Shown here one piece after another: positions 1 through 20,000 of a DNA stretch of 20,000 nt. The notes under the pieces are model-generated. The model was not told where the DNA came from. It ran no database searches and saw only the letters and a program-made list of their open reading frames with translations. The number at the start of each line of letters is the position of its first letter. Position 1 is the stretch's first letter. The translations under genes and the position numbers were made by a program. Source of the stretch: Vermamoeba vermiformis (Eukaryota); the NCBI GenBank assembly GCA_045837725.1, contig JBEWZL010000136.1:184857-204856 (forward strand). Direction: 5' to 3'.

Positions 1-2922
1 CCCAAAATTACTTATCTCCTTCCACAAACTCCATGGTTTTATCTGCAAAAATAGAGTAAATGATTGCAAAAAAGGGAAGCAACTTGTTACCTTCAAGTGA
101 TTTACAGCAACATTTTGACATTGTATGCAGAGCACTTTGGTAACAGAATACCTGTCATCCTTCTTTGTAAATAGTGGCACCATAACATCAGCAAAGGAGA
201 CTTTCTGTTTGTTGATATAAATGGCAGGATTTTTTTCGAAATCATTCAGGCTGTGGTCTTGCGTAACCTCCTTCCCTTGCACAACTCCACTCAGGGAAAT
301 CTATGCCATTGTGTTAATTCAAAACATTGTCAAGTAGTTACGCACATAATACTGAGGGTCTGCCCATGAAATGATGCTTGATAATTGTACAAATTGGCCT
401 GGATTGGCGACAAGTCTATAACGTGCCCACAAGGAAGCAGCTGTTGCATATTCCAAATCATTTTCTTGCTCTATCATATCAGTGCTCATGGTGGAAGTTC
501 CAATAATATGTAATAATGTGATTGGGAAGGAGTCAGGATGCATACTTGACAGCAAATCAATCTTGTATGTCTTAAAAATAATGTGAGTTGATTGACTTTT
601 TGCAATAACTGTACCTCAAATAGATTCAATGTGAAAGGCATTGTGTATGATCTTGTGGTAATCGATGTTGGAGTTTCTGATTTTGTGAAGTTAAAGGGCA
701 AAAGAATGCCAGCTGCCTCCAAGTCTGCATAACTCAGCTTCTTTCCTTCTGTCCTGCAATTAAACAATTGAGCTCTCTTTTCTTGTGAAGAAATGCTTTG
801 AGAAGGTACATACGTAAGAATTATTGTTGTGGGATCTTTTTCTAAGCATAAACTTGCAGCAACAATAATTTTTTGCCATTCTTGAGGATCAATCTTGTAG
901 TAGTCTGTTCCAACGTCTAACTCCATCATATTTGGGTAAAAATAACATGTGATTTGTGCACTCAAACTTGCCAAAATCTCTGTGCTTTGACTGTGTGAAA
1001 TACTTCCACTTTGCAACTCTTGCCTGTATCTGTGCATTGCAGTGAATAGAAATTCAATGGCTCGTGGAATACCAAAGGTCTTAATCCAAAGAGAATTGAT
1101 AATTTTACGAGAGTCTGCTGGCAGTACAGAGCTGGCTGGTTTAGAGTTTTGTAAGTAATGTTTGCCAAGGACAGATGAACATAGATCATCAAGATAGTCA
1201 AGTTTCAAGAGTGGATCCAAAGGCAAATTCACCCTTAAATAGGCAATTGAAGGGTCCTGCAATTCATGTAGTGGCCCAGATTTCAACCCAACCTGACGTC
1301 ATATGAGTTATCAGTTATTAAATAAAACCATACTTACCATTAATAACAAGGTGCAATCTGTTTTCTCGATGAATTCTTTATAAACAAAGTATGCAAGATT
1401 GCGATCCTGCTGCTTAATGTCTGTGAAACTCTAGGAAAGATTGTTAGCAAATCCTTGGGTTCAGAATTTCCTTACTTGACATTCATCAATATTCAGCAAT
1501 GTGATGGGTCTATCAGAAAGTTTAACATCCTTAAACACAGGTTTGTATGGAATCTGATCTTTTCCTACTTGATAGAATTTCCATAGTGATGTAAGTCTTG
1601 ACCCTGCATTTACAGCTGCAATCCAGTCCTCAGCAGTTGTTTCATCCACATTAATGCTTTGGCTTTTGATCGTTACTGTTGATAATTGATCTCCAATTGC
1701 CCTTGTTAACATTCTTTCACAAATTACTGCTGGAGTGAAAGACGTGTTGTATTGAGCAGCTGACGTGGATATAACTCGAACTTGAATGAGAGTTTTGTGT
1801 AGTTGTGCTAGAAATTCAAGTCGCTTTTCAATGTCCTGTAATTTGCTGTGCTCAAAGTTGTATTTTTGAGTAAACAATTGCTTTCTTTCCACTTTTGTTA
1901 AATCTATCCACTCTAACTCAATTTCTTCAACATTTTGTTTGCCAAGCAGAAATGACACCATAACATTTGGCAAGTGAAACACTCTTATGGCCCATTCAAG
2001 AGCCAATCTTGTTTTACCAAATCCTGGTGAAGTCACTGCTATTGTGTGCATTGGCTTTGAACATGCACCAGTGTAGTTATTATAACAGTCGTTAAGCAGG
2101 CTGAATATTGCTGTCTGATGGTTGTAAAAGGGTGGGTGGGATAGGCCTTGCCATGTACTGAGCCATAGAGTGCCCATGGGAACAAAGAAGGTAAATCGGT
2201 TGTCTCTGTGCTCCACTTTTGGTTTGTCCATTATTGCTTGTAACACATTTAATGCTCTTTGCACTTCTTCTGGGGGTGCGGTGTTGTATAGCCCATGCAA
2301 AATTCGAACCTTGGAATCTGCAGACAATTACTATACATTCAATAAATTGTTGTATTGCCTACCAGGGGATTTTTCTGCGTTCTTCTGTTGCTCTGTAATA
2401 GTAAACGTTAGTTGCAATTTGTTTTAACATAAAAAAATTTACTAAACAACAGAAAACTGCCAACGTTTTAGTTATAATAAAAATGGTAATACAATCGTTG
2501 ATTGTAATAAGAATACTACATACCTGGTTCCTTTGGAAGTCTCGACTTCTTCAGCTTTTCGATCTCAGCCCACAACGTTTGCAGAGCTGATTTCGAGATC
2601 TGCTTCTGCTTTAGTTCTTCTTCAAAATCACCAAAGAGGTCCTCGACTTTTTGGTAAGCAAGAAGCGACTTTCCAGAAACCTCTGCTTCGATCAGAATTT
2701 TGGCACTTTTTTCGGAAAACTTCAAGACTTTTCGTGCCCAATCAGCCACTTCTTCCCTTGTCCATGTTGCGTCTGGCTCAGTCACCTTATTTGTGCCTGA
2801 GCTCAAATTATTAATCAGTCAATATTTGCAGTTCGATTAAATCGGAAATGAAATAAAAATTAACACCTTTGGCAATTAATTAAAATCGATCAATTACCGG
2901 TAATTTGGTCATTTTTCTCCAT
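1..2922 (-). CDS. Crinkler/RHS (CR)-like protein: N-terminal SAM domain + P-loop NTPase + C-terminal PD-(D/E)xK-like endonuclease fold; 3' end beyond the window
   Basis: Phase-consistent exons 2922-2898, 2796-2524, 2392-2363, 2317-1476, 1430-1338, 1292-615, 570-346, 300-91, 42-<1, all with GT..AG introns. SAM signature WTREEVADWA...EAEVSGKSLL...LQTLWAEIEKL. Walker A TSPGFGKT (~2010-2033). Walker B LLNIDECQ (~1476-1499). REase-like IYIN...SFADVMV...VLCIQCQ in exon 91-300. Confidence 0.75.
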
Positions 2923-3361: not shown

Positions 3362-5353
3362 CTAGTAGTTATTGACAGGACTATTATAAGATTGACTGGT
3401 CATATTTGGCGGACTTGCCTGATTAGGCGAACTAATTGAAACAACTTCGCCATTATTCGCTTCTCGCCTTCGCTTGAGCTCCGCGTACATGCGCATGAAA
3501 CACTTTTCAAGTTGTCTGTCGGTCATCGAAGTCATGTCAAGTTCCACGGCTGGCACAGGATTGGTCACTTCCGGCACTTTAACAATTACAGGCTGAGCAG
3601 CGGCAGCAGCAACTTTAGCAAGTTCTTCTTGTTGTTGCTTGCGCAGTGCTTCTTCTGCCTCGAGCTTCTTCGCCAGTTCATCGACTTGTTGCTTCAAAGT
3701 CTGTGCTTCGGCCTCTTTTTGTTTGCGCGCCTGTCGCTCATTTTTCCGCTGTTTCTCCGTGCGATCAAGACATTCTAGCAACACAAATTAAGGTTTTACC
3801 ACAAAAATGATAATATTTTGCTTCCACTTACGTGCCAACTCGCCGTTCTTCGACGTCAAAGTGTCAACCTCTTGTTCGACTTTCTTCAACCTGGCTACAT
3901 CTTCCTCACGTTCTAGTCTCGCAGCCTCGAGCTTGTTCATCAAAAAGATGTTCATCTCTTGCAACCTCTCGATCGCTCCGTTGTTCGCACCGTGGTACTG
4001 ACCAGAGTTCGAGTTGAAATTGTTGACTTCATTCGCGGGGACTACATGCGTGTTCGTGTTGACAGGGACCATGGCCGTACTCTGTGCCTCAAGGGCTTGT
4101 TGAATAGCTTCTTCTTTCTATAGGTACGAGGTTAGATCTGGCTACGTGAAGCACGTGCACTTCAGGACTTACTTGCTGCTTCAACTGCTCGATCTCATTC
4201 TTCAATTGATCTATCTCTTGTACTAGTGCCGCAGAGTTATCAATTTGTTGCTGTTGATTGGTCGCGTTGCTAGTATTGGCCGCAGCCTCTTCCGCGATCT
4301 TCTTGTAATCGTTGTTGGCCTTTCGCAACAAGGCTTTCAGCTACTCGTATCGATTAGTCCACATAATCACTCAGAATATTGCGTTCAAAGAATTGTTACC
4401 TTTGAGATTTCAATTTTTAGACCTTGAACCTCATCCACGCTCGGCTGCGAACTCGATCCAACGTTCATGGACACAGTAGCCTGCGAGGACTGGCTCGAAT
4501 ACGGCGTTGTATTAGGCGTGTATCCTTGAGTACTTGGTTGGCTCGAGACAATTAAACTGGCACCAGAAGCAGAGCCAGATCGAGTGACCGGTGAAGGCTG
4601 GGAAAACGAATGCGGTTCGGGTTCGGAGTACGGCTGCGTCTCTGGCTGCGAAAGACTTATTGGCTCCACTAACTTGTTGGGGGTGGACAAAACAGGTTGT
4701 GACGCAGACCTATTGAAGTTCGCGTTCGCTGGAGAAACAGATTGAGGATTTGGCTGGACGGATGCAGGGGAACGTTGGGGCTGAGGAGCACTAGGACCAT
4801 TTGTGCTCGTGTTCGTTGGATTATTTTTCGGCGGAGAGGATGTTATGGGACCAATAGTTGAATGGGTAACGTGGTTGTAAGTAGTCCGTTGAATCTTGGA
4901 TGGAGGTTGTTCTGCAGGTGGCTGCTGCTCGTCTCGTGGTCTTTTAGTTACTTGATCATATTTAGGCGTCGTGTTTGCTGGCTGCAGCTTCGTAGGAGTC
5001 GAGTAAGTGAATTGCTGGTTTTGATCAACTTTTAGAGGAGATGGAGTGGTGTTTTGGTTTCTATCTGGTGTGTTTTCGTATAATAATGCTCTTTGAGTTG
5101 GTGGTGCTCGTGAAGGCACTTGAATTTCAATTGGGCCAGAGGATTCGGTTTGGAGTCTTTTTGTTGGTGAATCCCGTGAATTATAACGAGATAATAGAGG
5201 ATCGGGACGTTTTTTAATACCACTATTATTTATATCATTTTTGTTGAAGGGTTTTAGCGCACCAAATTGCGGGGCAAATTGATTTGGAGGAGCTGCGCGA
5301 TGCGCTTCCCTAAAATCCGTCTTTTGTAATACCACTCGCTGTGCGTGTGCCAT
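3362..5353 (-). CDS. Uncharacterised protein with an S/P/Q/N-rich disordered N-terminal half and a coiled-coil C-terminal half
   Basis: ATG at 5353. Exons approx. 5353-4400, 4340-4173, 4117-3832, 3774-3362 splice in frame (ISK|LKALLRK; LKQQ|KEEA; ELA-Q-CLDR). Heptad-like E/K/Q-rich segments. Stop TAG at 3364-3362. Confidence 0.75.
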
Positions 5354-6538
5354 TATTTTTAAATAAATACAAAAAATATATTACATCCAGCTGTGGTGTC
5401 TTAAATCAAAAGATTGCGTGAATAAAATAAAAAAAGTTGACACGAGAAATTCTGCGAACAAAAATTCGAATAAAAAAAGTGCGGGAAAATTGACATTGGC
5501 CACAAACACCCCAAATTGCGTTTATAATATTAAAAACACCAAGATCGTTAGTTTCAAGCAACCAATTGTTCGCTGAGCTCCCAAAGTTTTCAAGCGTCAT
5601 TGTCATCACGTGCTCCAGGCACTGGTTTGGCGACAGCACAGTCACTGAAATATTCGCCGCCTTGCTGTGCTACTTCAGGCGCAAGTGTACAATGCAACGT
5701 CGTCTATTTAACGAATTAGCAGGCCAAAGCTCAAGTCAATCTCGCTAAGTACGTACTTGAGCCCCTTGGTACGCGGTCTTGAAGTACAATCGGTTTAAAG
5801 TATAGAGCGGATATCGCAGTATAGCTGGTATATGTCGATTAAGATCCGTCATGACTACGTATTGACATTAATACGAGACAAGAATAAGCGATTGTTACCG
5901 GTACGTACTCATGCCAGGATGCAGGGACACAGCGATGATATTTTTGCCTTGTTCTTTCAATCTTCGATTCAATTCTCGCGCAAACAAGATATTCGCCATT
6001 TTGCTTTGACCATAAGACTTGACTCGGCTATATCCTTTCTCCCAGTTCAAATCCTCGAATTGAATTCTTTTCACGTACGAATGTGCGCTCGAAGCTACGA
6101 CGACAATACGGCCAGGCTCGTTGATTAAATTATTTTTAAGGAATAAATCTGTCAATAAGAAGTGCGCTAAGTGATTCACACCGAATTGAAGTTCAAATCC
6201 GTCTACGGTCTTTGAGTACGGCGGGATCTGTTCATGATGTTAGCGATGCAATGCCTATCAATAAAATCTTACCATAACACCCGCGTTCTCGATCAAAAAG
6301 TCAACTTTTCTGCCGTTAGTTCGTTTCTTGTATTCCTCGACGAAGTTTCTGACGCTCTTCAAACTGGCCAATTCGAGAATGAAATACTCAACGGATCCAT
6401 TCTCCGCTTTGATCTTTTCAGCTGTTTCCTTTCCTTTTGCATCATCTCGAACGGCTATATAATAATTAATAATATTTCATGTGTTCTGGGTCAATTGAGC
6501 TCACTTACTGAAGTACACATCCGCATTCAATTTTGCCA

Positions 6539-7281: not shown

Positions 7282-9360
7282 TTATTCGATTTTTTCAACT
7301 TGAAGAGCCAATCCGCCTCGCGGCCTTAAAGTGGCCATTTGTTCGACTTCAAATTGATATGACGGTGATAATTGGAGATTGAACTGCGAGCATAATTGTG
7401 CTATAACCAATTTGCCTTCCACGATTGAGAAATTATTGCCAAGGCAACTAAAAAATTTGACATCGTGTCAGATTTGGATCGAGCAACATCAAGCACTTAC
7501 ATTCGCCTTCCAACAGCAAATGGCATATAATAATCTGTTATGGCCTTCGATTTTTCATCTTTGAAGCGGTCCGGATCGAAAGTCTCGCTATTTGTCCAGA
7601 TTTTTTCGTTTCGCTGGATCGCGTACATCGAAATTAAGACCATTGACTAAAAAGTATAAAAAGGTTAATAAATACCCATATGTATTTAACAGCGTGCAAA
7701 AAGAATGATTTCTTACGTCTTTGGCAACAAAATAATCGCCAGGCATTTCATCGTCGTGGAGCGCTGTTCGAGCGATCATTGGCGCGGGAGGATACAATCT
7801 CAGACTTTCCTAATATGGAAATAATTGTAAGCCCGCCAACTTCAATCGTAGTATATACTTAGAACTTACTTTAATAACATTGCCGATGAGTTCTAGTCGC
7901 TGCAAGTCGTTGTAAACCAACGGAAACGAAACTGTTTTCAATTCTTCTCTAATTCGCGTTTGTATCGCTGGATTTGCAGCGATAAAATACAGTGTAAATG
8001 CTAGGAAATTAGCGGATGTTTCGTGTCCGGCCAATAAAAACGTCATAATATTATCTTTCAACTGGCAAAATAGTTTCGTTAGTTCATTCATTGTTCTATA
8101 ACTATTTAATATGATTACTTACTTCTTTCTCGTTAAGAGGGTCCATATTTGAATCATTTGTTAATAAATAGTGTAGCAGATCTTTCTTCACGCCGGTAGA
8201 TCTGAGTGTTTCGCGTCCATTATTTTCGTTTCGTCTCTTTTGAATAATTTCTTGTACCAAATCCTATAATAACATTACCACTATAGTCAATATTTGATAG
8301 GACTTACGTTGAGATTTTTAAAAGCTTTATTCAGAAGCCGATTAGATCTGACCGGGAGTAGTTGCCAAAATGGAACAAATCTTCGCCACGGACTTTCAAG
8401 CTCATTTAAAATGAATTGAAAGTCAGCTGCAAACGAATCAGTGCTGTCATGATCGACATCCATGTTGAACGCACAATTCGTAATTATTGAAAAAGTCAAC
8501 CTACGAACAATATTAATCCTTTTGCCTTATTAGGAAGTATGTTAATAATGGCACGAACTTAGTTAATTCTTTGTGGGCTTCGAGATTGAACGGAGATTTT
8601 TGTTGAGCCTTCGAGATCCAGTTCTTCTCGATCCATTTCTGCGTTACAGTGTTGATTATAGGAAACATTTCTATTATATTTCCCGAGACAAAGGCACGTG
8701 ACACAATATCTCGATGTCGCTTCCACGTGGCACCTTCACTCATCAGCACTGAGTCCTTTGCAAGATCCTGCAGAACACCACTTTCATCGCTCACTTTGGC
8801 ATAGCTGATATAGTGAGAGTTAGCATACAAGTCATATTGTTATTGTATTGGTAATGCTATTATGAGGTTGTTACAATACCTGTTAATATCTGCAGTGAGA
8901 ACGTGTTTTGCCACTTTTGGATCCGACACGAAAATGAGTTTTCGACCGAGGAAGTTTACTGCATAGATGTCCCCGTATGTATCAAAATATTTTAATATTA
9001 AATCCTTGCTCGTGGCATTAATCTAGAGAAAAGTTAAATCCGCTAAACGGTCAAGAGTCCATGATCGTACCTTATTAGCATCACCAAAAAATTTGTTTTT
9101 CAAATAATTCAGTAACCACACGAGAAAATATGGCCCAGGAATGCTTCTAAATTTTTTCTGATTTTTTTGAGGCCAAATCCGTGAGGCTAAAGGTCCACTC
9201 ACCTATTTAGCGATAAGTTACTCGTAGAATAATAAAAAATATTATTGCGCGCATTTATACTATTAAAGACCGAGATCAATTAAAGATCAAGACTTACTAA
9301 GTAGATAAACAGAAATGTCGCCGTATATTTCAGCAACAGCCAAATATCAGTACTATTCAT
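7282..9360 (-). CDS. Cytochrome P450 (membrane-anchored; CYP4-like I-helix signature)
   Basis: ATG at 9360. Hydrophobic N-terminal anchor followed by IPGP, TWKRHR (WxxxR), FLLAGHETSA (I-helix), ESLRLYPP (ExxR), FDPDRF (PERF) and PFAVGRRICLG (heme Cys, split by an intron). Exons splice in frame to TAA at 7284-7282. Confidence 0.95.
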
Positions 9361-13317: not shown

Positions 13318-16058
13318 ATGGAACGAGGACGAGGTAATAAATTATAAATAACTTTAATATTGCGCCTATCCTGATGAATGTGTCTCGATCGCTAATGGAT
13401 TCGCCTTTATTTAGGTCGTGGAGGCAGAGGACGCGGTGCTCCTCGAGGAAGAGGTGGCCGTGGTGGTCGTGGTCGAGGTGATTACGGCGGTCGCGGCCGT
13501 GGAGGTCGAGGTGGGCCAACACATCTCACGGATTTGGCTTGGGATGAAGGTAATCGCTCTAATTATAACAATTCATTGGCGATCTAAGACTAATATCGTT
13601 GTTTTAGCCTTGCAGTCAATTAAAGAAAACAAGATCAGTAACTTACAAAAAATACTCCTCAGTTATCCACAGTTACTCAACCAGGTTAAAAAAAATTCAG
13701 CAATATTATTGGAGGCCATAAATGAAGGTAATAAATACAAGTGTATCCGATTTAATTTCGAGATGAGACCTGTCAGTTAAACAATTATTTTTAGGGAATA
13801 TGGAGGCAATAAATATGCTCCTCGAGCAAAAAAATATCAATATAAACATAGAAGCATATAAACGAACACCATTGGACTTTGCAGCAAAAAATAATCTCGA
13901 AGAACTTGTTTGGCTATTGTCAAGCAAAAACGCGAAAGGCAAACCATTTCTATCTGCCATGGAAGGAGGTATGGCACATAATATTATTCATATTCTGATA
14001 TTAGTACTCTTTTCAGTAACACTGAGCAATATATATTGATCGATAAAAAATCGTGCGAGAGATCTGATTGCAAATGTTTAGGCCACGCAAAGCTTGCAGC
14101 ACAACTTATGAAACGACTATATTCGGATCCTAAAGAGGCAGCGCGAGATCACCGCGGAGATTACACATTGCCCGTGCACTTTGCAGGCTCAGTCGAGTGC
14201 CTCAAACTCGTGCTCCCACACAGCGATGTTAACGCCGTGAGGTAACTTCACCGATGATAATTTAATACGAAAACACTCTATAATGACATTATTATGTAGT
14301 TATATGTATGGCACGCCTCTACAAGCAGCAATAGCCTTCAAACATTTCGAAGTCGCTGAGTACTTGGTGGAGCACGTGCCAGACGTTGACTTCGAACCTG
14401 AAAGTTGGATCAATTCTATCGTGGGCCAATCACCGCTATTTTTAGCGTTAGTGGCTGGACATCGTCCGTTAGTTGAGAAATTATTGAATAGTGGCAAATG
14501 TCAACGAACACTCGATTCAACGATTGGATGTCCGACACCTGAAGAATACTTGATACTATTCGATAATAATCACGCTCAATCAAGCAGTGAGACAAAAAGC
14601 ATTTCTAGTAAGTCAATCGATGCCATTAATACAACATTCAATTTTGTTAACGTTCTGTTTCTGTAGCCAAACCAGGCCAAAAAGTTACATATGTGGCTTC
14701 TAAAGTCACCAAAGAACAATATTTAAATAGTATATTCAAGATACTAAACGTACCTGAAGAAGAACGAGTAATAACATACGAAGATCCGACAAAGCCTCAG
14801 ACCGAAGAGCCCAAAGAGCAAGATTCGATATATAATTATCCATCACTCGAAGAATGCCCTTCGTCTTTACTACGAGATTTCTTGACCAGCAGAAAAATAC
14901 AGTTTGATCCAAAGTACGGCAACTTTTCAATATTTTTTAAATATTACTCTATTGACCTTTATTATATCTAGTACTTTACACAACGAATTAGTTGAAAAGG
15001 TTAAGGACCTTAAAATTAAAAGTAAGTGTTCACAGCATAATTGATAGATGTTTATTAATCGCTGATCGGATCAGTTGAAAATACAACGCCAGAAGCCCAA
15101 AAAGATGAATCAACAGATATTTTAATTGACCGCGAGACTCTCAATGCAATTCCAGACTTCATTCCGTTCAAAGACTTGAAAGGCTATTTCGAACGTGATG
15201 ATCGTCAACATTTTTTGAAGCTAGATATCACCAATCAAAAAGGCAGCGCCGCGTTTCTTGATCTCAAAACTCCAGGTAAATATTTTCAAGAAATTTCTTT
15301 TTATTATTATTATTATTATTAAAATTATTAAATATTTGATAGGCGTGTATTCAATCCACCGAACTCATTTTTTCAACCAAAACTCGCTGTACCAATCGAA
15401 GATCGTGCTGTTGATGGGTCGACCATCATTGAACTCGACAACTCGCCTCTCAGAAGGTCTTGCATATCGTTTAGTCGGAGGTGTGGTCCGAGACTCTTTC
15501 GACTCCAAGTTGGTGGTTGAAAAACTTGAGCCAGGCATGGAACTTTTCTACGGAGAAGTTCATTTTCAAGATCATGAAAACGAGACTGACGACTTTGGCG
15601 GAAGAATTTTCGTTAACAACGGCAGGACATTTGTATTCTTTTCCGCGCTGTACGACGCACATCTGGAAAAAATGTCTGCTGAATTTGGCGTAGATACTGA
15701 ACTCGAACCTGATTCATACGAAGACGACCTCCGCATCAAAGTTCCGCTGCCGAGAATGCCGTACACGTTCTACGTTGGTGAAATGAAAGTTAAGCCCGGT
15801 GCAAATGACATCAAAGAAGGCGCAGTAATTGAAGGTGTGTGGTGGGAGACCAACCTGGAGAAGTACTCCGTGCCTGAAGTGTTCAACGAAGAAAATTTCT
15901 GCCGCAAAGGCAAATGGAGGATTGTCTCGCCGTTCAGTGAACAAGACGGACCTCAAAATCCTCAATTTGAAGTTGACTATGGCGATGAGAACCCACCACC
16001 AGAAGCGCCAGAGGAGCACCCTATTCACGAAGATTATTGGAGGAGCTCTACAAACTAA
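13318..16058 (+). CDS. RGG-box + ankyrin-repeat + HeH/SAP-like + unknown beta-rich C-terminal domain protein
   Basis: ATG at 13318. Spliced N-terminus MERGRGRGGRGRGAPRGRGGRGGRGRGDYGGRGRGGRGG. Ankyrin motifs RTPLDFAAKNNLEELV, GTPLQAAIAFKHFEVAEYLV and QSPLFLALVAGHRPLVEKLL. The exon junctions I traced splice in frame to TAA at 16058. Confidence 0.85.
15299..15320. repeat. (ATT)n microsatellite inside an intron of the ankyrin gene
   Basis: About 6 tandem ATT units, visible directly in the sequence. Confidence 0.8.
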
Positions 16059-16430
16059 ATAAACAACGACCTGGTTGAACACATCACTGCCTCTAAATCG
16101 CGCAATTTGTGGGTTCGTTCGAAAAAACTAGATCATATGCGAGGAGGCAAAGCCTTAATTTAACCAAATCGAATCTGATATTGTAGTAAGTAACCCTTTT
16201 ATTGCAATAATGGACCATTAGTAATCGTTATGCTGTTAGCTGGTGCATCAACTTGGGGCAAAAAATACACCGTGACGTACTGACAGCAGAATCTTGGTAT
16301 CGCTTTCTATTGCAGTATAATGATACACGTAAGTGGCATACAGCGAGATGAATCACATGCAAGTGACTTGTGTTCAAAAAATTGGTTTAAATTTCGCTCA
16401 CGAGAAAAGAAAATTCTATTTCGCTTTAAA

Positions 16431-19178
16431 ATGAAGAACGTTTATTTAGCTAGCATTCTAATACTAGCGTATTGCGGCCTTATATTCACGCAACAACTTT
16501 CTATTTTCGTGGACACAAACACCGGATCGGATTTGACTGGAGATGGAACAATCAACAAACCATTTCAAACAATCGTCGCTGCTCAGATGTACCTTAGATA
16601 TAACGTCACAAAAGAATCCTATTCTCGTACGTACACTACCTGCGGCACCCAATTTATTATTTTAATATTCACTTGGCAAGGATTTTGTGATTGACAGTAC
16701 ACAAATCTATGCTATTGAACGACCATATTATTAACACTATTAAATAGTGCATATAATGGGGAGGATGTGCGAGTAATTGGAGGTCGAACGGTTGGCGGAT
16801 GGAGTCTTGTAACCGACTCCGCAGTACTGAAGCGGTTGAATACTACCGCAAAATCTCACGTATGATATGGCATACTATTTGTTTAAACATAGTAATGGAT
16901 TTTTAGGTTTTAGTAGCAGATCTGGGCTCAACAGATCTGGGTCAATTAATGCGTCGAGGATTTGGAAGCAATGGCGCTGGCTTTGCCGCCATGGAACTAT
17001 TTTTCAATACAGAACCAATGACACTTGCCAGATATCCCAATAGCGTAAGTTAAACTGCCAACGTAGATCAGATCTATACTACTTTCATACTTCCTTGCAG
17101 GGTTTTCTGACCGTCAGTCAATTCGATAGCACTACGAGCAACTTCACATTCGACAGCAAGTCTGACAACATTGGTAACTGGAAGCTCGAATCGGATCCGT
17201 GGGCGTTTGGCTATTGGTACGAGGACTGGGCTGACGAGTACGTAACACTTTTGACACTTGACACGTGTCAAACTCTACTGACTTTTCCATTCATAGCTAC
17301 ATCCCAATAGACTCGTTTGTCTCTTTAGGATCAACTAATGTCTCCGCGCACATTGGATCGATGCCTGGTTATGGTGTTCAGGCCAAGCAAAGATTTTTCC
17401 TTCAAAACTTTCTGTCCGAGCTTGACAGCCCTGGCGAGTACTACATCGATAGAAACAGCTCTCAGATTTACTTTTGGCCTCCAACGAATGATTACGCTGA
17501 CGACGACTTTGTTGTATCTGTAGCACCCAACGCGTTTTCGTTAACCAGCGTTGCCTTCATCACATTCGAGGGATTCACTATTGAGGCTAGCCGTAAAGAG
17601 GGTGTTAAAGGCACTTCGCTAACAAATGTACGTATGTCAGGAGTCTTCACAGGGACTTTTCTAAATGATAATTGTAGGTGACTCTCTCGCACATGGTAGT
17701 TCGCAACACTGGCACGGACGCACTCAACTTGAGAGGCTCGAACATCGTCGTGGAATACTGTCAAATCTCCAACGCGGGAGATCGTGGAATTTGGTTCGTG
17801 GGTGGCGATAGAAACACACTCACTCGTGCCAGTAAGTCATAGGTGATATGTGATTTATTTCCTAATTTGGTAACAGACAACGTGGCCCGCAACAACATTA
17901 TTACTAAATTCGGTCGTTGGTCCAAAACATTCAAACCAGCGATCAATATGGACGGTGTAGGAATGCTTGCTGAACACAATGAAATGTACAACGGCCCTCA
18001 CGCTGCGTTGTTTTGGTCCGGCAATTACAACACGATGCAGTACAATGTTGTGCATGACGTAAGAAGTTCTTCGAGCCTTGTGCGACGAAGCAATGGCTAA
18101 CATTGCCAATATATTAGGTGTGCCTTGAGACTGCGGACGTTGGTGCGTTCTATTCAGGTAGAGATTGGACGAGATGTGGAAATGTCGTCAAGTACAATCT
18201 GTTTTAGTAAGTCATTTTGACACGTGTCAAACTAGAGTCAACGTTTTAACAAACTTTTGTCAGTAATATCACAGGATATGGATCATTAGGCGCAACTGGT
18301 GTATATTTCGACGATCAATATAGTTCTGGAGAAATTTTTGGCAACATTTTTTACAACGTCTACCGAGTATGTTTGAGCAACGGAATTTCTTATTCATGAA
18401 AATCTAATAACTCACGTCATATCACAGGGTGTTCTCATTGGCGGTGGCAGAGATAATACGGTCTATAATAACGTTTTCATTAACTGCGATACTGGTATTT
18501 ATATCGGTAAGTCGTGAGTTCGCGTTAATTTTTATTGAAATTTCGCAGACGCACGTGGTTTGGGAATTTGTGCAAAGAGCGCGAATTCAACGCTGATGCC
18601 AGCATTAGCTAGTGTACCTTATACTTCCGAGCCTTGGCTATCAGCTTTTCCTAAACTGGCGACCATTCTCGAGGTACACTTTTGCAACTATTTTTCATCT
18701 TCGGTAATTTAATCTTTCTACGTTCGGAAGGATAATCCAAATATACCCGCCGGCAACAGTATTGGCACGAATATATTTATCAATACGAAGACCTGGAAGA
18801 ACTTTTGCACGGCGGATATAATGACACCTCTCGTGACCGTTGACGAAAATTGTTTTAACTTGACAGTGAGTGACTTTCAAAACGTCAAAGGATTGAACTT
18901 TGCTATGCAAAATACTGGCCTCAATAAGTGCAGTGACACGTTCGTGTCAAATTTCCAACTCATTCCTGTTGATGAGATCGGAGTTAAACCAGGTATGGGC
19001 TTATCAACCTAAAAATACTATCAATCAAGGTATTAACTTGGTTTTAGAATCAGGGCCAACTGCCTCGCCGACAGAACCAAATTCCAACAATGAGCCGACT
19101 GGAACCGTGTCAACGTCTTCATGCCATTCTATTGCTAGTTACGTGCTCGCCGCTTCGCTTGGTTTATTAACGCTGTAA
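16431..19178 (+). CDS. Secreted right-handed parallel beta-helix (pectin-lyase-fold) protein of bacterial type (GH141-like neighbourhood), probably GPI-anchored
   Basis: Signal peptide MKNVYLASILILAYCGLIFT. Motifs GSDLTGDGTINKPFQTI, AYNGEDVRVIGG, ELFFNTEPMTLARYPN, WAFGYWYEDWAD, ELDSPGEYYID, DVGAFYSGRDW, GVYFDD, IGGGRDNTVYNNVF and IDARG. S/T/P-rich stalk and hydrophobic C-terminal tail. About 11 short introns; splicing at 16627-16747 is ambiguous. Confidence 0.85.
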
Positions 19179-19203: not shown

Positions 19204-20000
19204 TTAGATTAACAATGTCATCGTGATTAAGCTCATCAAGAATACAACGACATTGCTATGACTTGCGTTCGAAGTCACAGGTGACGAGGGACCTGAAGTA
19301 CTCGTAGGGGCAATGGAAGGATCGACCATGAATGAGCCAAAAGTGTACTCCATGCTGCTACTCGCACCTTTGATGGCAAGCGCAAGAGGCATGTTGTGAT
19401 TGGTCGGATCAACGATTTGCAGCTGAACAGAGTACTCGCCCTTCTCAACGCCAGAAATGTCAAACTGATCGACAATCGATACAGGACTCTCTGGCATCAC
19501 TGTGCGAAGATCGACCTTTGAAGTACCCTGCGCCACAACAGATCCGTTTGACACGAGTGCAAGATTGACATTCCATGCTTCGTAGATTGGTGCTACACCG
19601 TGATTGTTCCACGTGATGTTGATAGTAATGGCTGGTCGTTCAAAAGTTAGAGCAAACGATACTGACATTTTTACCAAAAAAAAGGAAATTTCCTTACTTG
19701 ATCCGACAGGTTCCAAAATGTCAATCTGTTCAATCGTCAATCTGAATCCAGCTGATTTACCCGTGTCCATCCAGTACAGTTGATCTGAGAATGGCATCGT
19801 ATCGTTAGTGATCTTGGGCAATCCATTGCCGTTTGCGACCAACGAGACGTGGTACTCTTTGACCTATTGGACAATTTAATCGTAAATTCAACTTGCCAGC
19901 AGATCTTTTTGCCGCTTTACCTGTCGCAAGGCCTCGCTCATGTTTGAGTTCGTTGGATAACCTCCGAACAATTCAGTGATGAATGGAGCTTGTTTCCAAC
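19204..20000 (-). CDS. DUF4832-like putative glycoside hydrolase, 3' part, probably GPI-anchored
   Basis: WKQAPFITE, YHVSLV, GFRL, TWNNHGVAPIYEAWNVNLAL, VDLRTVMP, GEYSVQLQIVDP and PLALAI resemble DUF4832-family proteins as I recall them. Ends with a PTSTSGPSSPVTS stalk and the hydrophobic tail VVVFLMSLITMTLLI. Introns at ~19920-19864 and 19697-19632. Confidence 0.7.

Follow-up and report, generated by a model that had tools for sequence, protein, structure and literature searches.

What is the function of a ten-exon gene that joins a SAM header to a nucleoside triphosphatase (NTPase) and a restriction endonuclease (REase)-like C-terminus in Vermamoeba vermiformis? The gene opens the window, the whole stretch of 20,000 nucleotides (nt) analysed here (contig JBEWZL010000136.1, positions 184,857 to 204,856), which corresponds to G000:C136:184857-204856 in the 43.3-Mb, 309-contig assembly that we searched. 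A reading made earlier from the letters of this DNA (the sequence-only reading) saw in it a nuclease-bearing conflict protein of the CR (Crinkler/RHS) type. Our results show that one SAM header is shared between NTPase+REase and REase+kinase cassettes, which is the CR pattern, and thus a CR-type conflict protein is likely. As to what it does, we lean tentatively, at somewhat less than an even chance, to an unsecreted CR-type protein that would bind DNA in the nucleus, driven by ATP, as part of a defence repertoire linked through SAM domains, its nuclease being weak or dead.

Read from the minus strand, the gene has a spliced frame that is open over 896 amino acids (aa), as expected from the intact multi-exon frame noticed earlier; its nine introns are all GT-AG and 44-131 nt long. 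It does not stop at position 1, as had been assumed (1..2922): the last exon runs out of the window and the gene ends at G000:C136:184524, 332 nt past the edge. The predicted features are as follows (X1 and X4 are runs with Logan contigs, P0042 is a relative, and P0043 is the C-terminal part of a relative that was modelled).

2898..2922, minus strand: exon 1, start codon, 8 codons and 1 nt, taken from the sequence itself (ATG and GT donor)
2524..2796, minus strand: exon 2, phase 1-1, the entire SAM header (SAM at about 2540-2776), by Pfam SAM_2 and PDB profile; donor joint found in X1
2363..2392, minus strand: exon 3, a 10-codon linker; introns on either side skipped in an X1 contig
1476..2317, minus strand: exon 4, P-loop NTPase, N-terminal half; a large helical insert separates the Walker motifs
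2010..2030, minus strand: Walker A, SPGFGKT (aa 206-212); its G, G, K and T are nearly invariant in 16 aligned paralog exons
1476..1499, minus strand: Walker B, LLNIDECQ (aa 383-390), immediately followed by an intron
1338..1430, minus strand: exon 5, NTPase helix and sensor-strand region; introns on either side skipped in an X4 contig
814..1292, minus strand: exon 6, last part of the NTPase, then the helical domain that contains GIPRA; the intron that follows is skipped in X1
1073-1059, minus strand: GIPRA, a GxP-type motif in the helical domain (exon 6)
615..753, minus strand: exon 7, linker or small domain; junction at aa 627 contiguous in P0042
346..570, minus strand: exon 8, with the REase-like domain's first helix, which matches helix 78-94 in the P0043 model
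456-418, minus strand: first REase-like helix, LEYATAASLWARY, with a conserved Glu (exon 8)
91..300, minus strand: exon 9, REase-like core (three strands), with the N-x5-FAD and IQCQ motifs
213-184, minus strand: NKQKVSFADV (N-x5-FAD; aa 732), motif II, with Asp740 at 189-187
126-118, minus strand: IQC (aa 761), with IQCQ at 126-115; Gln occupies the lysine position
1..42, minus strand: start of exon 10 (375 nt in total, 332 nt outside the window), remaining helix-strand elements and charged tail

Outside support covers eight of the nine introns, intron 1 being read from this gene only. Five introns are skipped in low-depth (2-3x) Logan contigs, three in X1 and two in X4, runs whose RNA status was only guessed; X1 and X2 also contain unspliced pieces. 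At three further junctions, after aa 627, 702 and 772, our protein aligns without a break or indel to P0042, a 1026-aa near-full-length relative from a short contig, which is 28% identical to our protein over aa 33-896 and lacks the intron-derived inserts that genomic copies show. None of the runs recorded as RNA contains this stretch, and the raw RNA reads X6 and X8 gave only short, highly divergent matches, which were left unused.

The header occupies aa ~15-93. Alone it matches Pfam SAM_2 below the cut-off (E 0.002, with a second figure of 0.0009; 18.7 bits against 20.5), while a profile of 28 copies finds SAMD1 (E 4e-5) and Polyhomeotic (E 7e-4) in the PDB, and all but one of its 39 matches at E<=1 (38 of 39) belong to SAM/PNT-domain proteins. 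At the level of sequence profiles the header is thus homologous to solved SAM domains, in agreement with the sequence-only reading. A SAM dimer prediction, run without an alignment, scored 0.00 against a mark of 0.32, which weighs neither way. When the SAM alignment was compared with longer proteins by shared words, no match reached E<=0.001, a weak negative.

The SAM exon matches 31 places in the genome, namely three loci of the same family, two second pieces of split matches and 26 other loci, all of which were fetched. Half of the latter (13 of 26: L046-L049, L051, L052, L060-L063, L068, L069 and L071, with two SAM-like exons in L049) carry a different Walker A cassette, with a Walker B in 12, and fall into five types by eye. 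Several of these foreign cassettes end in QxK- or SxK-like strands (VKQMKH, AIQTKH, IFQYKA, YSLKW), and judging from these motifs the thirteen genes would be better candidates for active nucleases than ours. Another locus (L054; G000:C282:29000-36000, minus strand) joins the SAM to DUF6826 (E 9e-5) and a fungal-type kinase (Pkinase_fungal, E 3e-13); both C-terminus kinds prevalent in CR proteins therefore occur here under one SAM header. Four loci adjoin frames that we take to be F-box-like, upstream of the SAM in L050 and L053 and downstream in L066 and L067, although Pfam gave no match; L050/L053 and L066/L067 are near-identical recent duplicates. The remaining eight have no long frame downstream. 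Profiles of our family fail to detect the foreign cassettes (best E 1.4), and profile-profile comparison of its C-terminus with five other SAM-headed C-termini gave a probability below 1% in all five. SAM-headed or family genes were also seen two to four per contig within ~100 kb on G000:C44, C193, C179, C78 and C47.

The SAM of our gene is 54-58% identical to those of three foreign cassettes and 21-28% to those of four of its own paralogs. On a SAM tree of 28 rows (78 columns, 1 of 25 branches strongly supported, five long branches), cassette labels group no better than when shuffled (18 changes, compared with a mean of 18.2); a single clade of the seven family SAMs was rejected (approximately unbiased test, p 5e-6), whereas two smaller groups were not (p 0.17). 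By these sequence comparisons, the histories of the SAM header and of the cassettes disagree, and a header does recombine among different C-terminal enzyme cassettes, as in CR proteins. By a fixed rule, 19 of 32 SAM loci have predicted phase 1-1 splice sites on both sides of the SAM, compared with 9.5% of 724 control frames; homologous SAM exons inherit their phases, so the 19 are not independent, and they show an exon ready for shuffling rather than 19 separate events.

The C-terminal domain, compared across 17 family members, begins with a helix, which in most of them contains Glu, followed by a strand, N-x5-F-A-D, a third strand ending in Q-x-x, a helix and a hydrophobic strand. The canonical PD-(D/E)xK site is described as combining an Asp of strand 2 with Glu-x-Lys of strand 3 (PMC3424549). 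The motif II Asp is kept in 14 of the 17 members, while the motif III lysine position holds Lys in three (L028, QCK; L037, HTK; L038, QAK), Arg in five and other residues in nine; these counts come from the alignment for L023, L025, L026 and L038 and partly from automatic motif matching for the other members. Both parts of the N-x(5)-FAD...IQC motif noticed earlier are present in our protein, and Asp740 of strand 2 with them. However, strand 3 reads QCQ, with Gln at both the acid and the lysine positions, and thus lacks the (D/E/Q)-x-Lys signature of active PD-(D/E)xK nucleases. The canonical QxK copies in the family favour the REase assignment, and the scatter of residues at the lysine position favours relaxed catalysis in most copies. 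The nuclease toxicity implied by the sequence-only reading is doubtful for this copy, because Gln stands at the catalytic lysine position.

In the P0043 model (mean predicted local confidence, pLDDT, 64; core blocks 70-90), a helix at 78-94 is followed by a short strand at ~148-150, a strand at 162-168, a coiled-coil insert, a strand at 221-228, a helix at 240-249, a strand at 262-266, a helix and a strand. In this model the element order matches the PD-(D/E)xK core (PMC3424549). Since its alignment rows were picked to line the motifs up, the model cannot count as separate evidence for the motif reading.

Under the reading we favour, the steps would be as follows. The protein ends in a 48-aa charged tail whose last residues are KKKKK, by its composition a likely nuclear localisation signal, and this lysine-rich tail would import it into the cell's own nucleus. 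There the STAND/AAA+-like NTPase would switch or oligomerise it on DNA, and the REase-like domain would grip the DNA and cut it poorly or not at all. The SAM would join it to other SAM-headed members, many with a QxK-like site, so that it might help to fend off invading DNA as a sensor, scaffold or damper. The repertoire would grow as genes are duplicated or lost and the symmetric SAM exon is exchanged between them.

Besides the thin SAM tree and the inherited phases, several points weigh against this reading. Our protein has lysines in the next helix, to which the catalytic lysine of the fold is able to migrate. The model is that of a relative, only 29% identical to our protein over the region. 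With the C-terminal model, no Foldseek match reached E<=0.001, and among the 45 matches listed RNase H folds (10; best E 0.051) stand above and outnumber REase folds (7: MspJI, Bse634I, EcoO109I, Ecl18kI and Cap4, the last presumably of this fold; best MspJI, E 0.086, probability 0.72). The predicted PD-(D/E)xK fold is consistent with the order of elements, yet the structural ranking does not single it out. Neither our protein nor its relative gave a significant match to any described CR family, with no relevant Pfam family for P0042, and in the Atlas language-model comparison the Crinkler-domain cluster reaches only 0.89, level with a DAP3-containing cluster. Other searches with the C-terminus gave little: in two VIA searches the 50 matches listed all came from the coiled-coil insert of the relative, leaving no room for REase chains, the BFVD search with the model gave no match, and the profile found no real match in the PDB by sequence.

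A CR-type DNase that is active through a non-canonical site, switched on by SAM clustering and ATP and degrading foreign or own DNA in immunity or cell death, as in the mechanism of the sequence-only reading, is unlikely, though it deserves to be taken seriously. BglII and BamHI function with Gln or Glu at the lysine position. Our protein keeps the Glu of helix 1 and the motif II Asp, L028 and L038 have canonical sites, and catalytic residues of this fold are described as migrating between elements (PMC3424549). However, eight different residues occur at the lysine position among the 17 members, which looks like relaxed constraint, and here the acid and the lysine of strand 3 are both replaced by Gln. 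The weak or dead nuclease remains the reading we prefer.

The family to which the gene belongs is large. Two genome searches found at least 25 loci of its NTPase family on 22 contigs, with a paralog identity of 22-42%, and a survey of their headers, as the earlier reading had proposed, found a SAM in eight by profile and in a ninth (L023) by eye. Exons 8 and 9, which encode the REase-like part, occur together in 17 of the 25; the C-terminal exons are missing from the fetched stretches of the other eight, two of which reach a contig end. This is a lineage-specific expansion with gene birth and loss. L024 and L027 are truncated after the NTPase and have a basic tail, L027 and L032 have altered Walker motifs, and G000:C202:74810-75563 and G000:C152:2902-3706 contain stops inside the family match. 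Searching 1.84 billion representatives with a profile yielded 37 matches of 52-535 aa, many of which end at the position of the Walker-B intron and are thus exon pieces of related genes. In a metagenome scan, exon 4 matched none of 109 candidate stretches and the alignment matched 1 of 186, and none of 17 viral contigs matched. The distant relative P0047, from metagenome contigs, has a SAM-like N-terminus by eye without a Pfam match, and its sequence suggests that SAM and NTPase may be paired in another organism.

These losses bear on another reading, in which a selfish or mobile NTPase+REase element like Medea1 gave rise to a now settled gene that is maintained by drift or a private genetic conflict, has no defence role and acquired its headers by chance. 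CR NTPase+REase pairs are described as derived from mobile elements, and NTPase+REase proteins are linked to Medea1, which has the same architecture, and CifB (PMC11342252); the eight loci without C-terminal exons and the copies with stops or altered Walker motifs would fit such a descent. However, neither terminal repeats, a flanking transposase nor tandem copies were found around our gene, only short chance-like repeats. It has nine introns, and a GT directly follows Walker B in all 20 scorable loci of the 25 examined, pointing to a common intron. The 896-codon frame is intact despite the low identity of the paralogs, which implies long selection. We thus consider a merely selfish descendant improbable.

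An exported effector like those of oomycetes, whose SAM would act as a header for delivery into the cells of prey, competitors or hosts, seems very unlikely. CR proteins are described as generally lacking signal peptides and carrying varied helical headers (PMC5289972), and the basic tail would serve in a target nucleus as well. In line with the sequence-only reading, our protein has neither a hydrophobic stretch resembling a signal peptide (over 19 residues, Kyte-Doolittle means peak at 0.4 within the first 40 residues and at 1.28 overall) nor a ubiquitin-like (Ubl)/LFLAK header, and the HVLV motif is missing as well. The Crinkler model matches the genome once, in a small ubiquitin-like frame that stands by itself. 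Furthermore, one clade without a SAM (L032:3111-4127, plus strand; L033:4503-5474, minus strand; L035:3394-4194, plus strand; P0010 and P0011; support 100/98 on a tree of 38 rows with L045 excluded and 14 of the 37 library matches included) has basic, acid-poor N-termini with R-x-x-(H/Q)-T-S that resemble mitochondrial presequences and point to the cell's own organelles. From these N-termini, organelle-targeted CR-type proteins are possible in this clade. Similar presequence-like N-termini were seen in L034 and a few distant matches.

In the NTPase, both Walker motifs are intact, as first read, with a helical insert of about 130 residues between them; we take GIPRA to be like the GxP motif of STAND proteins. 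The half-model of this region gave weak top structural matches that did not separate STAND from ORC/Cdc6; a grouping with a housekeeping family was not found, nor was a clean grouping with STAND. Foldseek with the NTPase half gave no match, the PDB gave no real match by sequence with the NTPase profile, and shared-word searches with exon 4 (against longer proteins) and with P0044 gave nothing at E<=0.001, which are weak negatives. A divergent housekeeping AAA+/P-loop protein (ORC/Cdc6-like or DAP3-like) whose C-terminal domain is not a nuclease fold can hardly be credited, despite this ambiguity of the half-model, given 25 dispersed, fast-diverging paralogs with swapped headers, no Pfam match, and no full-length conserved eukaryotic protein among the 37 library relatives.

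A bolder extension of the favoured reading, which we regard as speculative and rather improbable, would be an exon-shuffled eukaryotic immune network, in which one symmetric SAM exon links six unrelated NTPase-nuclease cassettes, a nuclease-kinase and SAM-only genes in a common polymer, nuclease-dead members like ours guard or sense for active ones, and a presequence takes the sister clade of the NTPase family to mitochondria. If the SAM does link dead and active members, this would be the paired sensor/effector logic of NLRs built from different parts. Alone, our gene is a further copy of a known architecture. The genome offers a compact, intron-annotated repertoire with a visible means of header swapping (the symmetric phase-1 exon) and natural paralogs with and without the catalytic lysine that can be compared directly. 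We know of almost no experimental test of CR proteins outside plant pathogens.

The neighbours of the gene are ordinary genes:

3362-5380, minus strand: upstream neighbour, a gene with several exons and strong GC skew whose coiled-coil protein is rich in Pro, Ser and Gln and matches no Pfam family
5895-6239, minus strand: short-chain dehydrogenase
7810-8839, minus strand: cytochrome P450
11136-12301, minus strand: RhoGEF
13767-14666, plus strand: ankyrin-repeat protein
16284-19012, plus strand: intron-containing gene with a GH141 insertion domain (E 1.5e-5)
19204-19863, minus strand: intron-containing gene with DUF4832 (E 8e-10)
L021:4189-5570, plus strand: convergent frames just past the 3' end of our gene, the last of which look degenerate

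The GH141 insertion domain and DUF4832 are mostly bacterial families, and these two genes are possibly old gene transfers. The L021 frames presumably resemble the end of an ABCC/MRP-type transporter gene, although Pfam found none.

Among known systems, CR proteins with NTPase, helix-turn-helix and REase are closest. CR proteins have variable headers, with NTPase+REase and REase+kinase as the two prevalent C-termini, and occur without signal peptides in free-living eukaryotes, derived from prokaryotic mobile elements (PMC5289972). Our protein shares with them a variable helical header, an NTPase, helical and predicted REase-like cassette, the absent signal peptide, the basic tail, the lineage-specific expansion and a sister REase-like+kinase cassette under its own SAM header. 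It differs in having a SAM instead of the Ubl/LFLAK header and no significant match to PF20147 or PF07999, and its family in the mostly lost catalytic lysine and the intron-rich genes. PF07999 (RHSP) had no match in the genome, but its control matched nowhere either, and PADLOC and NCBIfam gave no match for our protein. Its nearest Atlas neighbours are unnamed Mucoromycota clusters (0.98 and 0.95). Of the CR architecture proposed at first, the expansion and the shared header are thus supported, along with these neighbours, and a significant link to a described CR family is not. Zhang et al. in 2016 reportedly list SAM among CR headers. The literature searched gave no paper pairing Crinkler/CR effectors with SAM, which does not show that SAM headers are unpublished, and none on Crinkler NTPases of amoebae or on Crinkler REases with mitochondrial targeting. 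Canonical oomycete and fungal Crinkler (CRN) effectors have an LxLFLAK and HVLVxxP Ubl header; by its SAM header sequence, our protein is not a canonical LFLAK CRN. The Medea1 of Tribolium and CR-NTPase8/CR-REase7 elements, the latter REase being described with a His and an extra Glu (PMC11342252), share the order of NTPase then REase, whereas ours has a SAM header and no mobile-element ends were found around it. STAND NTPases and archaeal ATPase_2 (NLRs, Apaf-1, CED-4, BrxC) share the Walker A/B layout and the GxP-type helical domain and are its top weak structural matches (Atlas neighbours at 0.88-0.89), but our protein has the helical insert and, instead of a repeat sensor domain, the C-terminal REase-like domain. 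SAM_Ste50p headers are described on fungal NLRs (PMC9815663). Finally, by profile the SAM is homologous to those of the polymerising proteins SAMD1, Polyhomeotic and SARM1.
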